Of a stretch of 64,000 nucleotides of DNA, positions 5,305 to 63,967 are shown piece by piece. Origin of the DNA: Octopus vulgaris. Its lineage: Eukaryota. The notes beneath the pieces are model-generated. The model made no database searches. It was given only the letters and a program-made list of their open reading frames with translations, and was not told the DNA's origin. The stretch spans positions 61,504,001 to 61,568,000 of the forward strand of contig OX597814.1 in assembly GCA_951406725.2 (NCBI GenBank), written 5' to 3'. Position 1 is the first letter of the stretch. The number at the start of each line of letters is the position of its first letter. A program made the translations under genes and the position numbers.

Positions 5305-7855
5305 TCATCATCATCATCATCGTTTAGCGTCCGTTTTCCATGCTAGCATGGGTTGGACGGTTCTACTGGGGTCTGTGAAGCCAGAAGGCTTCATCAGGCC
5401 CAGTCAAATCTGGCAGTGTTTCTACGGCTGGATGCCCTTCCTAACGCCAACCCCTCCGTGAGTGTAGTGGGTGCTTTTTACGTGCCACCCGCACAGGTGC
5501 CAGACAGAACTGGCAAACGGCCACGAACGGATGGTGCTTTTTATGTGCCACCGACACAAGGGCCAGGTGAGGCTGGCAACGGACACGAAACAGGGCGGTG
5601 CTGGCAACGGTCGCGAAACGGAAGGTTCTCTTACATGCCACCGGCACTGGTAACACATCTGCAATTTCCATTGATCGATTTCCATTCTGATCCTCACTTG
5701 CCTCAACGGGTCTTCACAAGTAGAGTTTCGACATGCCACCAGCACTGGTAACACATCTGCAATTTCCATTGATCGATTTCCATTCTGATCCTCACTTGCC
5801 TCAACAGGTCTTCACAAGTAGAGTATCGACATGCCACCGGCACTGGTAACACATCTGCAATTTCCATTGATCGATTTCGATTCTGATCCTCACTTGCCTC
5901 AACAGGTCTTCACAAGTAGAGTTTTGTGTCCCAAGAAGGGAAGGTATGCATACGTAGGCTGGCTCCATCCCAAGTAGAAGGCCACGGGTTATGGACTCAC
6001 TTGTCCTGCCGGGTCTTCTCGCGCACAGCACACTTCCAGAGGACTCGGTCTCTAGTCATTTCCTCAGTGAGACCTAAAGTTCGAAGGTCATGCTTCACCA
6101 CCTCGTCCCAGGTTTTCCCGAGTCTGCCTCTTCCACAGGTTCCCTCAACTGCTAGGGTGTGGCACTTTTTCACACAACTATCTTCATCCATTCTCGCCAC
6201 ATGACCATACCAGCGCAAACGTCTCTCTTGCACACCACAACTGATGCTTCTTAGGTCCAGCTTTTCTCTCAAGGTACTTACACTCTATCGATTATGAACA
6301 CTGACATTACACATCCATCGGAGCATACTGGCTTCATTTCTTGCGAGCTTACGCATATCCTCAGCAGTCACGGCCCATGTTTCACTGCCATGTAGCATGG
6401 CTGTTCGTACACACGCATCATACAGTCTGCCTTTCACTCTGTGCGAGAGGCCTTTTGTCACCAGCAGAGGTAAGAGCTCTCTGAACTTTGCCCAAGCTAT
6501 TCTTACTCTAGCAGTTACACTTTCAGCACACCCGCCCCCGCTGCTGACTTGGTCACCTAGGTAACGGAAACTATCAACTATTTCTAGTTTTTCTCCCTAG
6601 AAAGTGACGGAAGTTGGTCTCAGAGCATTTTCAGTGTTTATTGTTCCTGAGCATCTGCCACATACAAAAACCATCTTCCTAGTTAGCCTTCCTTTGACAT
6701 TGCTGCACCTCTTATGTGTCCATAGCTTACACTTGGTGCATCTTATAGAGTTTCTACCTACACCTTTTCTACAGATCGAGCAGGGCCATCTACCTGAAGG
6801 CGTTTGTGATTTGTCTACCTTCCTACTGATTACGACTTTGGTTTTAGCTAGATTGACTCTGAGGCCCTTCAATTCTAATCCTTGTTTCCACACCTGAAAC
6901 TTCTCCTCCAGTTCTGATAGCGACTCAGCAATTAGAGCAAGGTCATCAGCATAGAGGAGCTCCCAAGGGCATCCTGTCTTGAATTCCTCCGTTATTGCCT
7001 GGAGGACTATGATAAATAGGAGGGGGCTGAGTACTGAGCCTTGGTGGACCCCTACCTCTACCCGGAATTCTTCACTGTACTCATTTCCAACCCTCACCCT
7101 ACTAGCAGCGTCCCTATACATGGCCCGCACAGCTCTCACTAACCATTCATCTATCCCTAGTTTCCTCATTGCCCACCAGATAAGGGATCGGGGGACCCTG
7201 TCGAAGGCTTTCTCCATGTCAACAAAAGCCAGGTACAGGGGCTTATCTTTGGCTAGGTATTTCTCCTGCAGCTGCCTTACTAGGAATATAGCATCAGTAG
7301 TACTTTTCCCTGGCACAAACCCAAACTGCATCTCATCTAAACTAACTCTCTCTCTAATTAGTTGGGCTATGACCCTCTCCGTAACCTTCATCACCTGATC
7401 CAACAGCTTGATACCTCTGTAGTTATTTGTATCTAGGGCGTCACCTTTACCTTTGTAGCAGTTGACTATTATGCTGCTACACCAGTCATTGGGTATGACT
7501 CCTTTGTGTATCACCTGATTAACTATATGGGTGACTAGGCTATAGCTGACACTACCAGACATTTTGAGCATCTCTGCAGTGATTCCTGATGGGCCTGAGG
7601 CTTTTCCTGTCTTCATGCTTCTAATTGCCTTAGCTACCACGGAACTATCAACTCGGATAGCTGGTCCCTCTGTTGGGTCAACATTCGGCAGACTCTTTAT
7701 CCCATTCATTTTCTTTATTCAGCAAACTTTCATAGTGGCATCTCCAAACCTCTCTCTTTGCATCCTCATTTAGCGCAAGTGAACCATCTTCCATGCAAAC
7801 ACACTTCTCTCCTACCACATCACGATTCTCTCTCACACACTGTCTTGCAACTCGA
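5305..7855 (-). mobile_element. RTE-clade LINE, 5'-truncated: RT, Cys/His finger, C-terminus, 3'UTR and (GAT)n tail
   Basis: ORF 6597-7709 has NYRGIKLL, QFGFVPG, FVDMEKAFD, HQGSVLSPLLF and YADD. The same frame continues past two TAG stops (6597, 6285) to RLRWYGHVARM..GRGR at 5997. A frameshifted upstream piece lies at 7678-7850, and (cat)n at 5305-5320 is the tail. Confidence 0.93.
5633..5924. repeat. 3 x 98-bp tandem repeat inside the RTE 3'UTR
   Basis: Units start at 5633, 5731 and 5829 (acatgccacc.gcactggtaacacatctgc...). Confidence 0.9.
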
Positions 7856-25919: not shown

Positions 25920-26090
25920 ATGTCTGAAGTGCCAACCTCACAGACCAGTGAGATTGAAAACGGCTCGCAGGAGATATCTATTGTGCATGTGACAATACCT
26001 AACCAACCAGTCCAAGTGCAATCTGTTATACAATCTAGCCATCAACCATCAGTGATACAGACAACTGGCCCAAATGTTCAGACTATTCAG
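25920..26090 (+). CDS. CREB1: CREB-family transcription factor, first coding exon (Q1 glutamine-rich region); exon acceptor at 25911/25912
   Basis: Acceptor ttttttccag, ATG at 25920 with an in-frame TAG just upstream, donor cag|gtaggt. Translates as MSEVPTSQTSEIENGSQEISIVHVTIPNQPVQVQSVIQSSHQPSVIQTTGPNVQTIQ, which contains the CREB VQVQSVIQ..QPSVIQ motif. Ends in phase 0. Confidence 0.93.
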
Positions 26091-27085: not shown

Positions 27086-27168
27086 GTAGCTACAGTAAAT
27101 GATGATATGACAGATGGTGCTGAAGGAAGAAAGAGGAGAGAGATATTAGCTAGAAGACCTTCATATCG
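27086..27168 (+). CDS. CREB1: CREB coding exon, KID/P-box N-terminal half with the PKA site
   Basis: Acceptor ctttcag, donor cg|gtattt. Translates as VATVNDDMTDGAEGRKRREILARRPSY(R); RRPSY is the Ser133-equivalent motif. Phase 0 to 2. Confidence 0.97.
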
Positions 27169-30404: not shown

Positions 30405-30538
30405 TAAAATTTTGAATGAATTATCGTCCGAGTGTCCACCTATCAAAATTGAGGAACCTACAAATCAAGACGGTCAAGAGACCACTGAAGCAGCTTCAAA
30501 CCTCAGTACAAATTCCATACAGTACCAGCCTGCAACAG
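30405..30538 (+). CDS. CREB1: CREB coding exon, KID C-terminal half and linker
   Basis: Acceptor ttttcttacag, donor ag|gtgagt. Translates as (R)KILNELSSECPPIKIEEPTNQDGQETTEAASNLSTNSIQYQPAT. Phase 2 to 1, continuing the previous exon exactly. Confidence 0.96.
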
Positions 30539-33500
30539 GTGAGTTCATTCAAACTTTTGAAACTAATTTACTTTGACCTTTTACCATAAAGACTTTCATA
30601 AAAGGTTAGTAATTTCATCCAGTGTTCTTACTGTGAGAAGAAATATTCTGTTTTATTTATTTACATCTATATTTAGATGAGTTTCTTCTTTCAATTTTCA
30701 AGATCTCTGATTCCTTTTTATATTCAAATATAAATTTGAATGATATTGCAGAGTAAAATCCATTGAAAAAACGAATTATGCCACTTCATGGCAAGTGATT
30801 TCATTTCTAGTGTAGCATCAGAGAAAATGATTTTTTAAAAATTAAACAATCTTTGGAAATTCATTAAATACACAATTTATCAAAGGCTAGTCTTTAAACG
30901 TTTCTAATTATTTAGCTTTATAAATTTTTTTGATACATGAGAAGAGCTGGACTCATTGTATCAAAGAGTGACCTGTCTGAAGTTTAGGCTTATATAAGTT
31001 TATACCTTCCTCTATCTTATTTGGGATTGTCGTAATATAGTAGAGGGTGGCAGTTTTGCAAACAAATATTGACTATGTTCATTTGTATAAACAATAAGAA
31101 GAGAGATATAACAGTGATATTAATAAATGGATTGCAATAATATGGACAGAAGTCTCTATTTTTGTAAAAGAAGTCTCTATTTTTGTAAAAGATCAAGAGC
31201 TGAAAACATACAGTTTGTTTTCAAAACAAAATGTACATGGTGAAAATAATGTTAGCTTGTGGGGAACCGTTCCATTTTCTGAAGTCATCATTGTTGACTT
31301 AAGTACACACAACTGATTCTTGCCATCCTCTTAGATTGAACCACTTGTGCAGAGACTGAACAGTTTGCATATTTTATATTTACTTGTCCATATCCCTGAC
31401 CAATATGCTGTCTGTCAAAACACACTTGACCTCTCTCCTCTTCAAACCCAGCCATCATTGTTTCTGTTGTTAATTAGGTGACCTGATCACTACCCTCTCA
31501 AGGCTTCAGACCTCACATCTGCTTTCCTCTAAAGTTTTTGTTATTTCAGCTCAGTTAATCAACAGAGCTCTATTAGTTATTTCACCTCTGCCTCATGTTA
31601 GATAAGTAAATAGTCAAAACAGTTGATCCTTCATTATCTCCCATTGCTAATTGTGTGGCATTTATCCACCATATCAACACATGGAACACAATCATGAAGA
31701 AAACAAAGGATTCCTCTGTGTATTACAAGGTCTGCAATATGTTTTGACTCATAAATTTCAGTTGGGCCTTTTAGTCCTTTGCCAAATGAGTCTCTAGGTT
31801 GCTACACTTCAACCAAAATGGTGCTGTAAGTAGTACACCATCTAAGAAAGTTATTCTATTTGCTCTCCATTTTATCACACATACTCACAAAACTTTTCTC
31901 CACAACACCATGCTCGCCACCATCTTTAGCCAGTTACTTAATACATGTGATTCACTAATTACCCAACTGTACAAGTTGATCACTCCTAATAGTTCACTCT
32001 GTTTCTCTAAAACAATGTTGCTCTAGTAATAACTCTTATTCCCATCAAATATTTCATCCCTTCTCTTTGTAGAGAAATCTATCACAACATATGGAAACAC
32101 AACAGAATGCCTCCACAAAGCCTTCTAACCTATCAAGTTAAAAGTGCATAAAAAATCATCTCCTTTATTACTTAAACTCTCTCTCCTTGCCTGGTGGTCA
32201 CTTGTATGGCATGGTTTCCTTAGAGATAGATCTATCAGAAACTTCCTTTCCTATGTCACTTGAGAACTTTGATGAAAGCAATAGGTGTTATCTTTGACAA
32301 TTACAAAATCTTTGCCTATGTTTGCATAGGAATCCTAAGTTGCTTACCTATAAGTTGCAAACATCAATTATCTCTTGGATCAGAATTTTACTGTTAGAAT
32401 ACTCTGTCACACTGGAATATGCCATGGTTTGATTATGTTTCCTGCACTCAGTTGTCTACAAGGTTACAGAGTTCACTTTGGAACCATGTGGTTCCAGGTT
32501 CTGTTCTGTTGTGTGGTCTGTTTTGTAAGTTCTTTGGGATGTGCAATGCCTTGTGGATAAAATTTGATAGAAGAAAACTGTATGGAAGCCTGTCACATAA
32601 TATGAGTGTGCATATGTGAATGATTGTTTTTGTGTGTCTTCATATTAATACCATTTGAGTGATGGTGTATTTGTTTCCATCTCTAGTAAACAGTATCTCC
32701 TGTATCTTGGTGGTGGCTTCATTGATTTTGAATGAAGATCTGTAGAATAAGAAAATACCTTCCTCAAAAACAAGTAAAGGATACTTCTTCAATAAGTGTC
32801 AGTCAGCCCATGCCAACATGGAAAAAGTAGATGTAAAAACGATGGTGATGACAATGATGACTTTTCTATTGTACATCACTTGCCTTACTATTGCTGATGA
32901 TAAAACTTCCATTCCCCTTTTTATTTTTCTGATTCCAAGCATCACCCACATCTAACATAGATACTCCATGCCAGACTTGAACTGTTTCTGGTGACCTCAA
33001 AATAAAAAAAAAAAAAAACTCCTTCAATAGGTGCAACACCCAGTCACCATGAAGATTGTACATACATAATGCCAAAGAGTACCCTAAAAACTAAACTACT
33101 TCTCTTTGGCCAGTAGATAACTTCAGTTGTCACCAGTTGCCTATCCCAACTAATTCTGATCCTCTGATCTAACTAGTAGCATACTACATGTACCTTTTCC
33201 CCACTTGGTGCATTTGTATCTCATCTCGTTTTTTCATCCCCAACACCACATTGCTCAATCACTTCTCCCAAAACTGCATCCCTCTTCAATTTTTCTTTGC
33301 CATGTTGGTGTTGTTTTACTTCAGGTCAGCCCTGACTAAGCAAAGCTATTTCAGCTATGGCCATCCTGTTTTGTATTTCCATTTGGACAATGTCCAGTTT
33401 GTCCTTTCTGTTTTTGAGATAGTAAGGCAAAGTTTAAGGGAGATTTGGTTGTTATTTCTAGCAGGTTGAATGACTGCATAGAGACTCCCTTGTTGGCTAT

Positions 33501-55058: not shown

Positions 55059-56358
55059 AGAGAGAGAGAGAGATGTGAGTGTGTGTGTGTTGCTTCCATA
55101 TTTTTGCTTGTAAGAGGGATACTATTGGAAATTATCTTCAATTTAATTCTGACATTGTTGATGTTTTGCTTCTAGTAAAATATTAATGCTGTCTGCATGT
55201 GTGATATAGTTCCTTGTTGCTTTATTTGTCTGTGGCTCAAAATATTTCATGTTTTTCAAGCAAACCTACATACCTGTTTTGTATCATACATGTATATATA
55301 TATATATATAATATCTATTCTGTTAAAGTGTTTTACTGGTCACTTGTTACATTTTATGAACACATTCAATAAATCAATAATATTTCTTTGGAATACTTTT
55401 TCGCTTCTATGAAATCATATTGTCAGTTTTGAACCTGTTTTCTCACTTCAGCTTTTGTTTTTATTTGATATTGTGATTCTGTCATAATGTTCATTTACTA
55501 AAGTATTCATTATTTATTTTCAGTTGTAATTAGTGTTATTGATCTTGGTCTTGTTTTTCTGCTGTTTTCAACAATGTTTAAGTTAACAGAAATAATATAA
55601 TTTTGTTCTACTTCACAACTTGTTCTTCAAATATTTTGTTTTCATAAAAACAATGTTGGATATTTCATTTTAAATAAGTGTTTTTCAGGTGTTCTTAGTT
55701 TCTCTGAATATTTTATATATTCCATGATTTGGTTTGCTAATTCTGTGTCTGCTTTATAAATTGCAATTAAAGGTTTCTATTGATTAGTTTTCTGAGGGTA
55801 TATTTAGGTTCCATGCACTTGTCTAGTTATTTTGTTAATTTTATTTTATTAATTACTTGGTTAGAAATTCTTCTGATTGGTGTATTGTAATGATTTTCTG
55901 TTCAGTGGGTCAACATGTCTTCTGTTTTCATATTTTGCTTTTTCTCTCTCTGTCTCTCCAGTCAGAAAGGATCATAGAGCTTTGATATATTCCTGAGAGA
56001 TCAAATCCTAATTCTTCAGTGACAATTTGCAGCAACTACTATATTGCTTGAAATCTGAGCAAGAAATCATCAGTGATTAATTAGAGATTTTGTCACTAAT
56101 GTCCGAGGAAAAAAAATGATTCTAGTTGTTTTATTTTGTCTTCATGTTGAATAACCATTACTAATTCACAAAGAAGACATGATAATAAAATCTCCTAGAT
56201 AATTTTTTTTGTTGCTATTGTTGATTGACATACAAAACTAATTCAAAATAGATTTTATTGACATCTTTTTAAAACTAACTTATCTAAAAAAAAAGCAGTT
56301 TAAAATTTATGAATGTTTATTTTGTTTTTCTTTTTTTTCTTCTCTTCTTAAATTTTAG

Positions 56359-56382
56359 TATACAGCCAGATGGAAGGTTTGC
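56359..56382 (+). CDS. candidate 24-nt in-frame CREB microexon, (V)YSQMEGL(P)
   Basis: Very strong U/C tract plus tttag, donor c|gtaagt, length a multiple of 3, and open in the phase-1 frame required by the flanking exons. Confidence 0.6.
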
Positions 56383-59300
56383 GTAAGTATATTCTTAAAG
56401 TGGTTTGATATGTTTGCATATAGCGTAAGTATATTCACCTCTCCAATTAGATGTGTTCCCAAAAAGTGAACTTTCACACCTTTGGAAGATTGTGGCAACA
56501 TAGCTATATCAATTCTCAGGATTTGGTCTTTGGGATTCCACTTAGCTACTGCATGAATTAGTATCAAAGCACCTTTAATTTAGGACCTATTCAGCTAACT
56601 GTAGATTGTTTAGTTATCGTCTATATTATAACAAAGTGGATAGTTTCTGATTTTATAAGAATCCAGTTCTAGGAAGACTTGTCATTCAATCTGAAACAGT
56701 TTTAGATAACATAGTTTTTTGAGGTCAGTTTGTATGAGTGATTCTGTTACTCTTTCACAATTTCATTCTTTTTCCATGTTTTATGTTGTTTTCGTAATGT
56801 CATCAAAGACTGATGATCTGTTGTTGCTTTGTTATGTATTTTATTCTTCAACCATTGTGACAATAATATGGCTTAGCTACTTTACTTTTAATAATTATTT
56901 TATTGAATACTTGATTTTTTATACACTGTGTGCAGTAGCATGGTTTAGTTGACCTATGTTTAATAGTAGTAATACTTTTTAAAACATATGAACATAACAG
57001 TTATATCTAAGCATATATAGTAATTCATGACTTATAAGTGTTTTTCTTCTTAAGGAACGCAGACATAAGAATTTAATGAAAGTTTCATTTGAGATTATTT
57101 AGAGAATTGATGTGAATTCTTGCTTGATGGTTTGCACCATCTCTCCTTTATTCTATAATATTTCCTTTTATCCAAATGTCGAGGCATCTTCAGTTTCATC
57201 TTTGAGTTTCACTTGCTGTTCCCTATTTCTCTAAAGCGTGATAGATTTATTCAGCATACAGGCATACATATAGGCATATTCAGTTTCATATTCTTTCTCA
57301 TATTTTATTTAATTTTGTTTCCTTACTTTTCTGGGGTTTTTTTTTTAAGTTAAAAAAATTGTTCTGATAAAACATTGTCAATGTTAATTATGACTGGTTA
57401 TTTAAAACGATAGATATTTACGATATACTGAGGTTTTAGTGAACTCTCCTCATCATAATTTTTTTAATTATAATTTTAATTTTCACTTTACTATGCTTGC
57501 GTAGATCAAACAGAATTCATTAATGTAGATTTTCTATGGCCAGATAACCTTGTCACCAACCCTCTCCTGTTTCCAAGTAATGTTTCTCCATGACCAGTCA
57601 TTGTAATGATGGTGATGCATGCGTAGAACCATCATGTGCTGCCAAGACAAGAAGACACATATACACACACACATACACACACACAATTGCTCACTTACAT
57701 GCACAACATACACACATGCACATATATAATGGCCTTCTTTCAGTTTTCTTCCAAATCCACTCACAAAGCTTTGGTCAGCCAGGGACAATAATAGAGAACA
57801 TTTGCCCCAGGTGCTACACAGTGGGACTGAATCCAAAGCCATGTGGTTGGAAAGCAAACTTCTTAACCACACAACTATGCCTTCACCTACCTCATGTTTC
57901 ATTTAAAAATTTATTGCAGTTAATCTCACATAGCTATATTTTTTAACTGATCACTTTCACTTTAACAACACTGTAACTTTTTTGTGTTGCACTTATTATC
58001 TTGCACATTTTTATGTATGTGGCTCTGATAAATTAGTGTTTTAAATTACTTTGAATGTTGCCTCTTTAAGGCAGATTCTGTAAGTAATCTTTTGAATTAT
58101 TTTGTTCAAAACTCCAACCTCAATGAGAGCTGTCAGTTATTATATTTCCTGTAATGTCTAATTGTTGTTGATTTGTATAATATTCACCATGTTTTCATCT
58201 ATATCATCTCTGTGTTATTTAAAAAAAAAAGCATGGAATTTTATGTAATACTATTGCATGTTAGCGCTGAAGAAATAACTTGTCAACTTCATGTTTTATA
58301 TGTAGTGTCAGAAACTGTTTGGTAAAGAGAGTTAGTGAGATAACATATTTAGATTTATATTAGGACTTTGTGACAGACTAACGTGTAAATTAATTTGTAT
58401 GCATTTACAAATTTGTACCCATTGCTAATTTAGACAAATTTTTCTTTTCCATTTTTATCAATGTACGAATACTTCATTGAAATTTTCCTCACTTGCAATG
58501 GGTTATATTTCTTGATTTGTTGGCTGTAAAAGGGTTACTGGTGAAGTGATGTAAACATTTTGTTAAGAGGGAGTAAAGTGCCTGTAATATACGTAAATTT
58601 GCTCAAACCACTCGAATCTATGTCTTTACCATGACAAAGTAAGTTGTTAAATAATCACAGTTTAACCCATTAGCATTCAAATTAATCTGTCAAATGTAAT
58701 GCTTGTTTATTCACATTCATCATCATAATCCTCTTTTAATGTCCATTGTCCATGGGTTGGATGGTATAACCAGAGCTGGCAAGCTGGGGGTGGGGGCTGC
58801 ACCAGACTACAGTCTGATTTGGCATGGTCTCTATGTCTGGATGCCCTTCCTAATGCCAACCACTTTACAGAGTGTGCTGGTATTTATTATGTGGAACTAC
58901 ACGGGTACTTTTATGTGACACCACATGGGTACTTTTACATGTCGCTGCACAGACACTTTTATGTGGCACCACATGGGCACTTTTACATGGCACTGTCACA
59001 AGTGCTTCACACCATCTGAAGGATTGGTCTTAACACTTCTTCTGCAGAGTACAGGTCTTCTTGAGTACAGCCAGACACCAGGTATCTCAATCCTTGTGTC
59101 TTGCCAGAAAGGTTCAGCTTCCTCAGGTTGTTCTTCAGTGTAGTGTTTTGAAATAATCATGTACTATCTTGTAGCTTGGAGATTTCAGTGATGTGATTGT
59201 TTAGTTTTTATATTGACATTTGTAAGATAGGTATGTCTGGCCAGATCTTTCAGTTTGAACATAAAACAAGTAGTATATTTGGGTTTGATATAGCTGGTTT

Positions 59301-61038
59301 CAAAACTAAAGGGTTAAAATTATAGCACTGACATAATACCTTCATTCTGAAGAGGCTATTAGTCTTTTGTTGAAATAAAATATTTCATCTCATTATTTTC
59401 AAAAGGCAATGTATATTTTTCTTGATTAACATAATCATGTTGCTTAAATTACAATTGTATGATTTTCAATTGTATGCATTTTTCTCAAGTTTTGCTTTAA
59501 AGTTATAATTTTTCTTTCATCAGTAGTTATTAATATATCTAGAATAAATCCATGCCCGCATGGCAAAAAGAATGTAAAAATTATAGTGATGCACATAAAT
59601 ATCTACAAGGCTTAGAATGAACTATTTTAAGATTGGTTTCTGTTTTAGTTGAAAAGAAGAATGAACTTCATTTGTTGTGTACATTGCTTTTCTATACTAG
59701 CTTGGGTTACTCAAATATATTATCTAGGCATTGTTTTACAGCTGGATGCCCTTCCTGTTGTCAACCCTTATCTGTTTTACGAGTAAAGGATCTATTATTT
59801 TATATGACTTTAAAGGCACAGAGCCAGCAGATGGTTTGTTGACAAGAGGGAGAAATGACAACAACATCACTTGCTTGTATCTTATGATTTTGGGGGAAGA
59901 TCAAATATAAACAAACACACACACACTCTTTCACAAAAGATTTCTTTCAGCTTCCATCTACTAAATCTCCTCAAGGCTTTGGTCAGCCAGTGGCTAGAAA
60001 AGACTTGATCTAGGTGCCTTGCAGTGGGACTGAACCTAAAACCATATGGTTGGGAAACAAACTTTTTAACAACCCAGCCTTGACTTCTCCTCACCATACT
60101 TGTGCCTAGCCACCACTGATAATTTTAAATTGGAAAATGGGGTTACAATTTAAATGCAGTTCATGATCACCTTTTAAAATATTTTAATATTGTACCTGTC
60201 ATTCTTGTTTGAAAAATCTCTATGAAAGTTTTAATCTCATTCAACTTCCAATGTATGGTATGTAATAACAGTAACAAAATTTTTTTTTTTTTTTGTGTTT
60301 GTCCTTGGTTGGTAGGTGTTATTTCTTATTTGCTTCTATCTAGAAATCAAAGGAAATGACTACTATTCCCTTTAAACTTTGCTTTTGTCACCTGGACACT
60401 AATGTTTTGAAACCAACCTATTTTTCATTACATTTCAGACAGATTCAGCCTTGAGTTGCTGAAGCAGAAATATTGTTATAGCAAATATTCTGTTTAATAT
60501 CACAGATTTGCAAGGCAGCGAGCTGGCAGAGATGTTAGCACATCAGGCAAAATGCTTAGTGGTATTTTGTCTGTTGTTACGTTCTGAGTTCAAATTCTCT
60601 GACCATGAGCAGGAGTAAACAGGGAGCATCTTAGCCATATGTTGACAGGGATTCTTTGGGGTTTGAATAAATGTAACAACAGTTTTGATGGAAATATTAG
60701 CTATTTTTTATATTTTCTCAAGTGTAAGCAAATAGGAAATAACAGATGCTACCCAAGGACAAAAATCATGTTATGCAGTGTAATTGGTGTGTTGCTAAGA
60801 GTGTATAATTTCTGTATCTTTTAGATCTAAATTTTGTTATACATTCTACTCCTTACCTAAGTAATAGAAAATAGCTACCAACTGCACCTCACAGTAGATT
60901 GCATCTACTTTCTGAATATCTTAATGTCTGTATTGTTAAAAGAGAAAACCCCAGAGTAAAAAGATTGCTCATAGACCTTAAGTTTAAAACTAATCTATTG
61001 TTGGTATTTTGTTGTTTCCAAGCAAAGGAGTTTGGATG

Positions 61039-61553
61039 GAATTCTGGTTTAAGCATCCCATATAATCTCTCATAACTTTTTTATATGTTTGGAAATTTTC
61101 AGAAAATTTTTTGTGAATTTTATGTGGAATTCATATGAGTAAAACAAAAAAAATTTTCTTTTTAAATTTTTCAAATCTCCCCACTCTTAGATCCTAAAAG
61201 TTCCACTCTTTTTTGGTTTTACAAGTCAGAGTTTAAAATATGGACAATCCAAATTTTTTGCTTAAATCCCAGCAATGGACCTTGGGTGTATCATCATTTC
61301 ATTAAATGTGTTTAAGGAGAGAAAAATATTAAAAAACATTAATACATGTCAGAGTAACAAAGAAACAAGTAAAGTGTCAGGCAGTCATGGGATGAGCGAA
61401 AAGTAACAGTTAAATTGCCTTTAAATCACACTCAAACAACTTTTTTGTTGCTTTTTGCATAATTGTATGAATTTGCAAAAAATTTCAGAAAATCCCCCAA
61501 AATAAAAAAATAAAAGTTATGCATGGTTATATGGGGTACTTAAACCAGAATTC
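61039..61553. mobile_element. MITE-like element with long imperfect TIRs
   Basis: gaattctggtttaag..ccatataa..cataacttt pairs with aaagttatg..ttatatgg..cttaaaccagaattc. Confidence 0.6.
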
Positions 61554-63425
61554 TATTGAAGTTTGTTCTATTCATTATTACTTTTTACTTGTTTCAATCA
61601 CTAGACTGTGGCCATGCTGGAAGACTGCTTGAAAGATTTTAGTCAGTTATGTGACTCCAGTTCTGTTTTATTTATTTATTTATTTATCTTAATAATAATT
61701 TCTAGTTTTCATACCTCAGGAGATAAAACTCAGGCATCGTTTCTTTCAAGTGATGTCAAACATTAAGGCATATACAGGCATATACACACACACACACACA
61801 AGTTTTCACAGTTTCCATCTACCAATTTCACTTACAAGGAAGTAGTTGACTTAAGACTATAGTAGAAAACACTTACCCAACAAAACATTAATTTCATTTT
61901 ACTTGATTATTGAAAATTGATACTAGATCATGTGACAATTTTCACCTGTGGTAGACTAGCATTCAGTCTGGGGAAAGAACAGTCTCTCTTTTACTTTATG
62001 CTATGAGTATCAGTCCTTTTAAAAATCCCTTCAAGGCTTAAGTTTTTCTGTTGGATTAGATTCTTTGGAAGTTTTGTCATTACAGACAATCTACAAAAAA
62101 TGTAATCCTAGATTGTATTCTCACATATATTATAAATATTCTAGCTATCAAGAAGTTCATTATTAGTAATTATCTATTTAATCCTCAGTTTGTCTATTTA
62201 AGCTGCTTGGAAATAATTAGGAATGTTTGCATCAAGATTTCAATTTTATAAATATATCTGATTATCATCCTTTTTTCTTGAGATTTGTTTTATTTCTAAT
62301 GGATTTGGTATTGCTACAAATTCTTATACTTATATGTAGCTCTTTTCTTTTTGTTGCTAGATTTCATTCATCATTTTAATTATCCAGTTGTAGGAGTGAA
62401 TGTTGTAGTTTAGTCCCAATTTGATTGAGATCTATCGTGAACCATTGTCATCCTGTCTTTTTATTCCCACAGGTTTAATGTATTTTAAAGCATCATGTTA
62501 TTCAAGATACTACTCTTCTTTTTTAAGTGCATTTAATTAAAGGTAGATTTGGCTGACATTTCTAGCAGATGAATATTGAAGTGCCTTCATTTGGTCATCA
62601 TAGTTCTTGTGTTTTCAGTTTCTTGTACTTTTCGTAAGTTTTTCTTCTTGAAGCAGCAAAACCTTATATATGGCAAAAATTTTAGCATAGATTGTTCAAA
62701 TTGTAATTTTTTAATAAGTTGCTTTTAGTATGTCAGAGACCTAATTGGTTTATTGTTATAATCTTGGAAGTACCACTATCACACCGATACTTTTGGTAGT
62801 TTCAATTAGCCATTTTTAGTTAGTAGATGAATGAGATCACCAAACCTGAGTGATTTCAATTGCCTACACTCTTGAACCAGTACATAATGAGTTAAGAAGT
62901 TTTTAAGATCTGACTAATGAATTTACCTCCAAGAGTTACTTTGAGAATTTGTATCTTCTGATTACTGTTTGCCATTGTCTCCTAGAAAATGTGTTACTGT
63001 ATGTTTTTTAAACACACACACACACACTCACAATGTCTTTTTAGAGTTTTATTCTTTGTTTTGCAAACAACTCTTTTTGTATGGAGATTTTGATTTACAG
63101 AGATTGTTTGCTTCTTTTTATTTCTCTTATGTTATGACTTTGGAAGAATATTTAGTTCTCCCTTATTGAAATGTTCATAGTGTTTCTCTCTTTATAATTC
63201 GAAAGTGAGATCATTCTCTTTCTATAGCATACATATACACACTATTTTTCAAAAATTGTTATGCTTAATTTCACACATTCAAGTTTAACTGTTTTTACTA
63301 TTTTATGTCTATTTCATTTTGCTATAAACTGAACTCGCATTTTAATGCTTCTAAAATATATATATTTACCTCTGCTATGGCAGTATGATATTACATTTTT
63401 GTTTCCTTTTTCCATTTTATTTTAG

Positions 63426-63605
63426 CATTAGTCCCATCTGGTGCCATCCAAATAACTACACATCCAGAAGGAACAGTGGCTGGTCAAGGTCTTCAAACGT
63501 TAACAATGACCAATGCAAATCCATCATCTGGTGCTGGTACAACATCTGGTACTGCCACTATTGTACAGTATGCCCAAGGTCCTGATGGACAATTTTTAAT
63601 TCCTG
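63426..63605 (+). CDS. CREB1: CREB coding exon, Q2 activation domain; bZIP exons lie outside the window
   Basis: Long pyrimidine tract plus tttag, donor g|gtaagt. Translates as (A)LVPSGAIQITTHPEGTVAGQGLQTLTMTNANPSSGAGTTSGTATIVQYAQGPDGQFLIP, with the hallmark GLQTLTMTNA and TIVQYAQ..DGQ motifs. Phase 1 to 1. Confidence 0.96.
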
Positions 63606-63621
63606 GTAAGTAATTAACTGA

Positions 63622-63967
63622 ATCCATTTCCCACAATATGATAGTAGCTGTTCTCTATTATTAAGTCCAGAATGAATTTCTTAGGAATTCTGTTTCTATT
63701 TGTATAATAAGGAAAGCAAACATTTCTAAGGGATGTTTATCTTGTTGATCTTTTTACTTACATTGATGGAAAGTGAGCCATTACCTCGTTCAGCTCTTCC
63801 TTTTAGCCATTGCTTACACATAGAATTATGTAGTTCTAAATGTTGGGGCTTTGTCACAAGCATTAACTAAATTCATTTTCCCACAGTATAATAGTAGTTC
63901 TCTATTATTAAGTCCAGAATGAATTTCTTAGGAATTCTATTTCTAGTTTTACAATAAGGAAAGCAAA
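63622..63967. repeat. direct duplication of about 100 bp just after the Q2 exon
   Basis: ttcccaca..tagtag..ttctctattattaagtccagaatgaatttcttaggaattct..aataaggaaagcaaa at about 63622-63720 and 63872-63967. Confidence 0.85.

Follow-up and report, generated by a model that had tools for sequence, protein, structure and literature searches.

The Octopus CREB gene carries a 24-nt microexon whose donor sequence recurs in an exact copy shortly downstream, and the question raised by this locus is whether the second copy acts as a switch between coding and stop-containing forms of the transcript or is the silent remnant of a small duplication. A sequence-only reading of the window (the whole 64,000-nt stretch of DNA analysed here, on whose + strand part of the CREB gene lies) had proposed the switch. 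The exons, splice sites and repeated elements on which the argument rests are as follows, in window coordinates.

25920..26090, + strand: CREB Q1 coding exon, starting at the ATG (tblastn 100% to residues 1-58 of isoform P0118; spliced translation equal to the annotated proteins).
27086..27168, + strand: KID exon carrying the RRPS kinase site (tblastn and spliced translation).
30405..30538, + strand: post-KID exon, phase 1 at its end (tblastn and spliced translation).
56275..56358, + strand: acceptor region of the microexon, with CTAAC at 56275, a 58-nt AG-free zone and an 87% pyrimidine tract (sequence scan).
56359..56382, + strand: 24-nt frame-preserving cassette microexon, which takes ...PATALVP to ...PATVYSQMEGLPLVP (brain cDNA and isoform pairs).
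56381..56394, + strand: proximal copy of the 14-mer, the donor in use, GT at 56383 (exact match; cloned cDNA).
56423..56436, + strand: distal copy of the 14-mer, a candidate cryptic donor, GT at 56425 (exact match and consensus).
63426..63605, + strand: Q2 exon, with the common acceptor and an in-frame Met165 (ATG 63506) inside it (protein match and spliced translation).

The 24-nt exon is a genuine cassette microexon of octopus CREB and is spliced at the first of the two donors. Splicing and translating 25920-26090, 27086-27168, 30405-30538, 56359-56382 and 63426-63605 gives residues 1-197 of the 296-aa isoform P0118, and the same exons without the 24-nt exon give residues 1-189 of the 288-aa isoform P0117. 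The Q2 exon is 100% identical to an O. bimaculoides protein, the bZIP exons lie beyond the window, downstream, and the borders of the microexon are canonical (AG 56357-58, GT 56383-84). Both isoforms are on record in three Octopus species, P0118 and P0117 each being labelled O. vulgaris, O. sinensis and O. bimaculoides. The including form was cloned as a 296-aa creb cDNA from a brain library, that of the O. vulgaris supra-oesophageal mass (Sirakov et al. 2009, PMC2722649), and in that cDNA the microexon follows the post-KID exon and runs on into the Q2 exon via the proximal donor. In Sepia pharaonis the CREB1 pair is 299/291 aa long and VLGQMDGLP stands at the corresponding position; the Octopus and Sepia pairs represent the same gene, the same 24-nt cassette exon and the proximal donor. 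Pairs of including and skipping forms are P0118 vs P0117, P0123 vs P0124 and P0126 vs P0125, and the Logan proteins likewise contain both forms. Of the cephalopod-type CREB proteins that span the junction, seven of 17 include the microexon, all seven by way of the proximal donor, nine skip it and one reads into the intron. The part of the sequence-only reading in which the proximal donor yields an in-frame CREB was thus borne out by the cloned cDNA and by recorded proteins of both kinds, and on these sequences the 8-residue cassette exon is common to octopods and cuttlefish. An alternative frame of the microexon (IQPDGRF, resembling a Q2 repeat) is ruled out; the cDNA and Sepia fix the frame in use.

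With the neural microexons that depend on eMIC/SRRM4, as described in the available text of PMC8797185, the octopus exon shares a length of at most 27 nt, a preserved frame, a long AG-free zone, a UCUC-type pyrimidine tract and an upstream CUAAY. It differs from them in that the 40 nt before the acceptor lack UGC and that two further AGs follow its CTAAC. Because a sequence scan found no TGC in -40..-1 before the acceptor, the exon fits the eMIC code of that source only partly.

Isoform diversity at other points of the gene was also seen. P0001 (O. bimaculoides X3) is an annotated Octopus isoform that ends at RLLKNR, without the leucine zipper, and P0120 is an annotated KID-less Octopus form in which an upstream exon is joined to the post-KID exon; the N-terminus of P0120 agrees with the cloned cDNA at its 5′ end, and no sequence for it was located within the window. 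At the post-KID junction (window 30530-30550) bivalve CREB carries short optional inserts (P0066 vs P0067); in Ruditapes, form X1 has GDYM there and X2 does not (P0015/P0017, P0066/P0067 and P0050 compared). Because of these bivalve inserts, the junction looks like a splicing hotspot that recurs in molluscan CREB. In octopus, the intron after the post-KID exon begins with G-E-F-I in frame, which resembles the GQY-I of vertebrate-type proteins. The vertebrate CREM-like proteins P0130, P0131, P0133, P0180 and P0181 stop a few residues past the post-KID exon (...GQYSMYA); they are Q1-KID truncations at the homologous junction, produced either by a stop exon or by intron read-through. Elsewhere in the window, an 80-nt direct repeat lies just past the Q2 exon donor (63641-63720 and 63888-63967, 91% identical, 247 nt apart), and long reverse-transcriptase-like open frames, interrupted by a few stops, run along the minus strand at 6000-7718, which we take to be a LINE-type element.

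The repeat behind the microexon is as it had been described, a 14-mer occurring twice, 42 nt apart, with exact copies at 56381-56394 and 56423-56436. The window contains no third match even at two mismatches (chance mean 0.25), and the sole two occurrences of GTAAGTAT on its + strand sit within these copies. By chance, such a 14-mer would recur at a distance of up to 100 nt with a probability of about 1e-7 to 6e-7, and at less than 1e-6 the second 14-mer is better explained by duplication than by a coincidence of base composition. Events of this kind are not confined to the microexon, as complex exact repeats of at least 14 nt within 100 nt number 12 in the 64-kb window, at 10 loci including the microexon donor; the nine other loci give a background of about 0.5% per donor core and about 2% for the five donors of the window. 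The two copies match the donor consensus equally (exonic 0/3, intronic 8/8, scored against the textbook consensus). The +1..+8 consensus leaves six of the 14 shared bases uncovered, a sign of copying more than of separate selection at each site for pairing with U1; a perfect 14/14 copy without flank similarity could instead reflect selection. The flanks of the two copies show no similarity to each other, and a longer tandem duplication is ruled out by these dissimilar flanks and by the lack of a TRF hit at the site. An origin by template switching, which would give a copy, an inverted copy and a copy, is unsupported: the direct copies are identical, but the putative inverted segment in the spacer is off the exact reverse complement at 4/11 bases. 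None of 80 related loci, all of them non-cephalopod by identity, has a duplicated donor-like 13-mer within 100 nt, and a scan of metagenome contigs for the microexon donor pattern gave 0 matches.

Use of the distal donor would have a clear consequence, marked by one further feature.

56406..56408, + strand: first in-frame stop, TGA, in the hypothetical 66-nt exon, with a second stop, TAG, at 56421-23 (spliced translation).

That splicing at the distal donor would create a 66-nt exon with a stop, as the sequence-only reading had claimed, is confirmed on translation. The spliced frame reads ...VYSQMEGLRKYILKVV-TGA, the TGA at 56406-08 sits 16 nt upstream of the distal junction, and the TAG at 56421-23 is a second in-frame stop, additional to the one claimed before. 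The predicted product has 145 aa and consists of Q1-KID, with the RRPS site kept and the tail VYSQMEGLRKYILKVV. Both premature stops precede further junctions, with the Q2 and bZIP exons downstream. An in-frame ATG follows 96 nt downstream of the stop, and a start at this Met165 would give a 132-aa bZIP product. One base past the first stop lies an out-of-frame ATG, from which a mini-ORF of 6 codons would run through the hypothetical distal junction (window 56410-56424). A-to-I editing of both stops to Trp, which would give a 14-aa insert, was considered and set aside, as no matching protein was found and the hairpin is short.

The equal consensus of the two donors makes some use of the distal one plausible, as does length, since exon definition should come more easily at 66 nt than at 24 nt. 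The predicted distal tail was found in 0 of 17 cephalopod-type CREB proteins, in collections of proteins to which NMD targets are invisible; every member of five cephalopod protein clusters was inspected. Protein searches with a length range that included 145 aa returned no truncated cephalopod CREB cluster. None of the annotated Octopus and Sepia CREB isoform records (for example C0KKU6_OCTVU, XP_029638655.1, XP_029638680.1, CAE1228142.1 and CAE1228140.1) uses the distal donor, and the duplicated donor is part of none of them. RNA contigs from four of 24 listed runs (X7, X12, X10 and X9), placed on 56100-63750, are dominated by those of intronic repeats; among the 15 of 124 contig joints listed none falls at a splice site, and the Q2 exon is almost without contig cover although all its words are present in those four runs. 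The intron past the microexon holds high-copy interspersed repeats (57636-57891, 58660-58915, 59940-60195, 60452-60707 and 61476-61731), which attract thousands of contigs from the four runs. In the literature covered on octopus CREB splicing and cephalopod microexons, from which most subscription journals fall outside, neither the microexon nor its donor copy is described, and the word 'isoform' is absent from the main text of the octopus creb papers (PMC2722649, 10.1101/2025.10.16.682951). The microexon itself is already annotated in databases, and the duplicated donor behind it is real.

We give a probability of roughly 0.5 to the reading that the microexon is spliced at the first donor and that the second 14-mer is a leftover of a short duplication, a latent cryptic donor that is rarely or never used. 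It is favoured because splicing in the cloned cDNA is at the proximal donor, the distal tail is missing from all 17 proteins, and nine other loci in the window carry comparable duplications; the equality of the two donors in consensus counts against it. The distal copy is therefore likely to be a mostly silent remnant of a small duplication and not a regulatory switch; a regulatory role for the copy is less probable than none. In such a history, a short duplication would have placed a copy of the microexon donor 42 nt downstream, and productive splicing would use the first donor or skip the microexon. An 11-bp hairpin with the spacer would possibly damp the distal copy. Any leak from the distal donor would yield a premature-stop mRNA with junctions downstream of the stop, and nonsense-mediated decay would probably remove this mRNA, rather than its giving rise to a regulated short protein.

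The hairpin depends on a predicted element in the spacer that was not part of the sequence-only reading.

56407..56417, + strand: 11-nt antisense arm, which pairs (Watson-Crick and G-U) with +1..+11 of either donor copy, the distal one preferred (prediction only).

In the centroid structure an 11-bp helix joins the arm at 56407-56417 to positions +1..+11 of the distal copy. Within a 201-nt context and from 37 to 15 C, the distal hairpin has a probability of 0.74-0.88 and the proximal one of 0.05-0.16, and the predicted pairing of +1..+6 is 0.965 at the distal donor vs 0.587 at the proximal, which would speak weakly for a damped distal donor. The distal occlusion value was reached by 15 of 600 shuffled spacers. 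For the post-KID donor, which is in use, the predicted pairing is 0.99, and among 24 GTRAGT sites the distal one comes 5th, so predicted pairing is weak evidence of silencing. Long-range pairing between the microexon and 56460-56500 does not stand out (rank 40 of 933). A comparable arrangement is found in adenovirus 2 E3, where the donors D1 and Dcr1 lie 74 nt apart and, according to the available text of PMC1524908, a stem-loop may favour the natural donor. Octopus CREB is like adenovirus E3 in having two nearby donors and a local stem-loop; the adenovirus structure, however, was tested by disruption, whereas that of octopus is predicted, has modest significance and involves donors that are exact copies of each other.

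Among the alternatives, the one that survives best, though we still think it rather unlikely, is that the distal donor is a regulated poison 5′ splice site, of which a controlled fraction of use lowers the CREB dose through NMD. The equality of the donors, the two in-frame stops and the exon junctions further downstream all agree with it, and premature-stop CREB variants are known in other animals. Waeber and Habener reportedly described in 1992 a stop-containing exon in rat testis CREB, and a premature-stop case is likewise reported for human testis. Porcine CREB provides another, the cloned variant V5, which retains part of intron 5 (available text of PMC9331954). Like the hypothetical octopus form, V5 acquires by alternative splicing a premature stop upstream of the bZIP; the octopus transcript, in contrast, is hypothetical, and its stop would lie at a different position, after the KID. 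Against a poison donor stand the lack of distal use among the proteins searched, with the tail in none of the 17, and the background of about 0.5% per donor at which duplications overlap donors in any case, and also, weakly, the predicted hairpin covering the distal donor.

More doubtful is the idea that the distal copy is never spliced and instead serves as an intronic enhancer, recruiting U1 snRNP and so aiding definition of the short exon, as happens downstream of PAH exon 11. A perfect +1..+8 consensus 42 nt past a donor that itself has no exonic consensus would suit such a role, and there is precedent, in PAH intron 11 and with engineered U1s, for inclusion being promoted by U1 bound past a donor (available text of PMC10572768). 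However, the predicted hairpin would hinder U1 binding, and the identity of the copies at -2, -1 and +9..+12 is not explained by U1 pairing.

A third alternative, which we consider improbable, is a three-part RNA toggle made of the donor, the antisense arm and the exact donor copy, in which competing hairpins would choose between skipping, in-frame inclusion and the stop-containing form. The arm on the proximal donor would lead to skipping or distal use, and the arm on the distal copy to inclusion, the copy serving as a decoy; the stop-containing form would then be decayed, or would give a bZIP-less KID modulator and an internally started bZIP repressor, and the choice might be set by transcription speed, temperature or A-to-I editing. 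For this speaks a single arm whose predicted partners, 56383-93 or 56425-35, form mutually exclusive hairpins of 11 bp, and whose four departures from the exact reverse complement are all wobble-compatible. A helix of 11 bp turns up in 70/5000 mononucleotide shuffles, 130/5000 dinucleotide shuffles and 30/9110 window 28-mers, and in a nascent RNA ending at 56420 the proximal hairpin is predicted to form transiently, at 0.43. But the reading is post hoc, and taken in isolation the two hairpins have little stability (-3.4 and -4.5 kcal/mol at 37 C). The duplex energy of the arm is not significant, being matched in 350/5000 mononucleotide shuffles, 641/5000 dinucleotide shuffles and 720/9110 28-mers, and regional folding z-scores are unremarkable (0.61, -0.71, -1.80, 0.53 and 0.16). 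Scrambling the distal copy in silico barely raises the proximal hairpin, from 0.02-0.10 to a mean of 0.08-0.22; the medians stay flat or fall, the widest context gives no rise, and the structure does not flip. An arm with mutually exclusive partners is reminiscent of the docking and selector sequences of Dscam, a likeness that is predicted only, but the failure of the octopus structure to flip once the distal partner is removed in silico is unlike a Dscam docking-selector switch.

Ribosomes in general re-initiate poorly after an ORF of 145 codons, and this counts against a CREB1b-like product from Met165. CREB1c of Aplysia, which lacks the bZIP, arises by exon skipping. The weakest alternative, likewise improbable in our view, is that distal mRNA escapes decay and gives a stable 145-aa bZIP-less Q1-KID modulator (CREB1c-like) and perhaps the 132-aa Met165 bZIP repressor (CREB1b-like), for which the retained RRPS site, the in-frame ATG 96 nt past the stop and the single spliced Aplysia CREB1-beta transcript that yields the CREB1b repressor and the CREB1c cytoplasmic modulator (available text of PMC5772390) can be cited, but the predicted tail is seen in 0/17 proteins. 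The hypothetical octopus transcript matches the anatomy of CREB1-beta; its products, however, are predicted and would come about through donor extension.

The interest of the locus lies in what CREB isoforms do in other molluscs. Lymnaea CREB has seven spliced forms, which give an activator and a KID-less repressor (PMC3105992), and long-term memory is gated by the balance of CREB isoforms in Aplysia (PMC5772390) and in Lymnaea (PMC3105992), according to the available text of these sources; in the octopus brain, creb is induced by learning, as stated in the available part of a preprint (10.1101/2025.10.16.682951). If the distal donor were used and regulated, as a poison or truncating site, cephalopods would have their own control of CREB dose or a repressor of their own. 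If the distal donor is silent, it is a small and ordinary case of a duplicated cryptic donor, and what the locus adds beyond that is an 8-residue cassette exon of CREB in octopods and cuttlefish.
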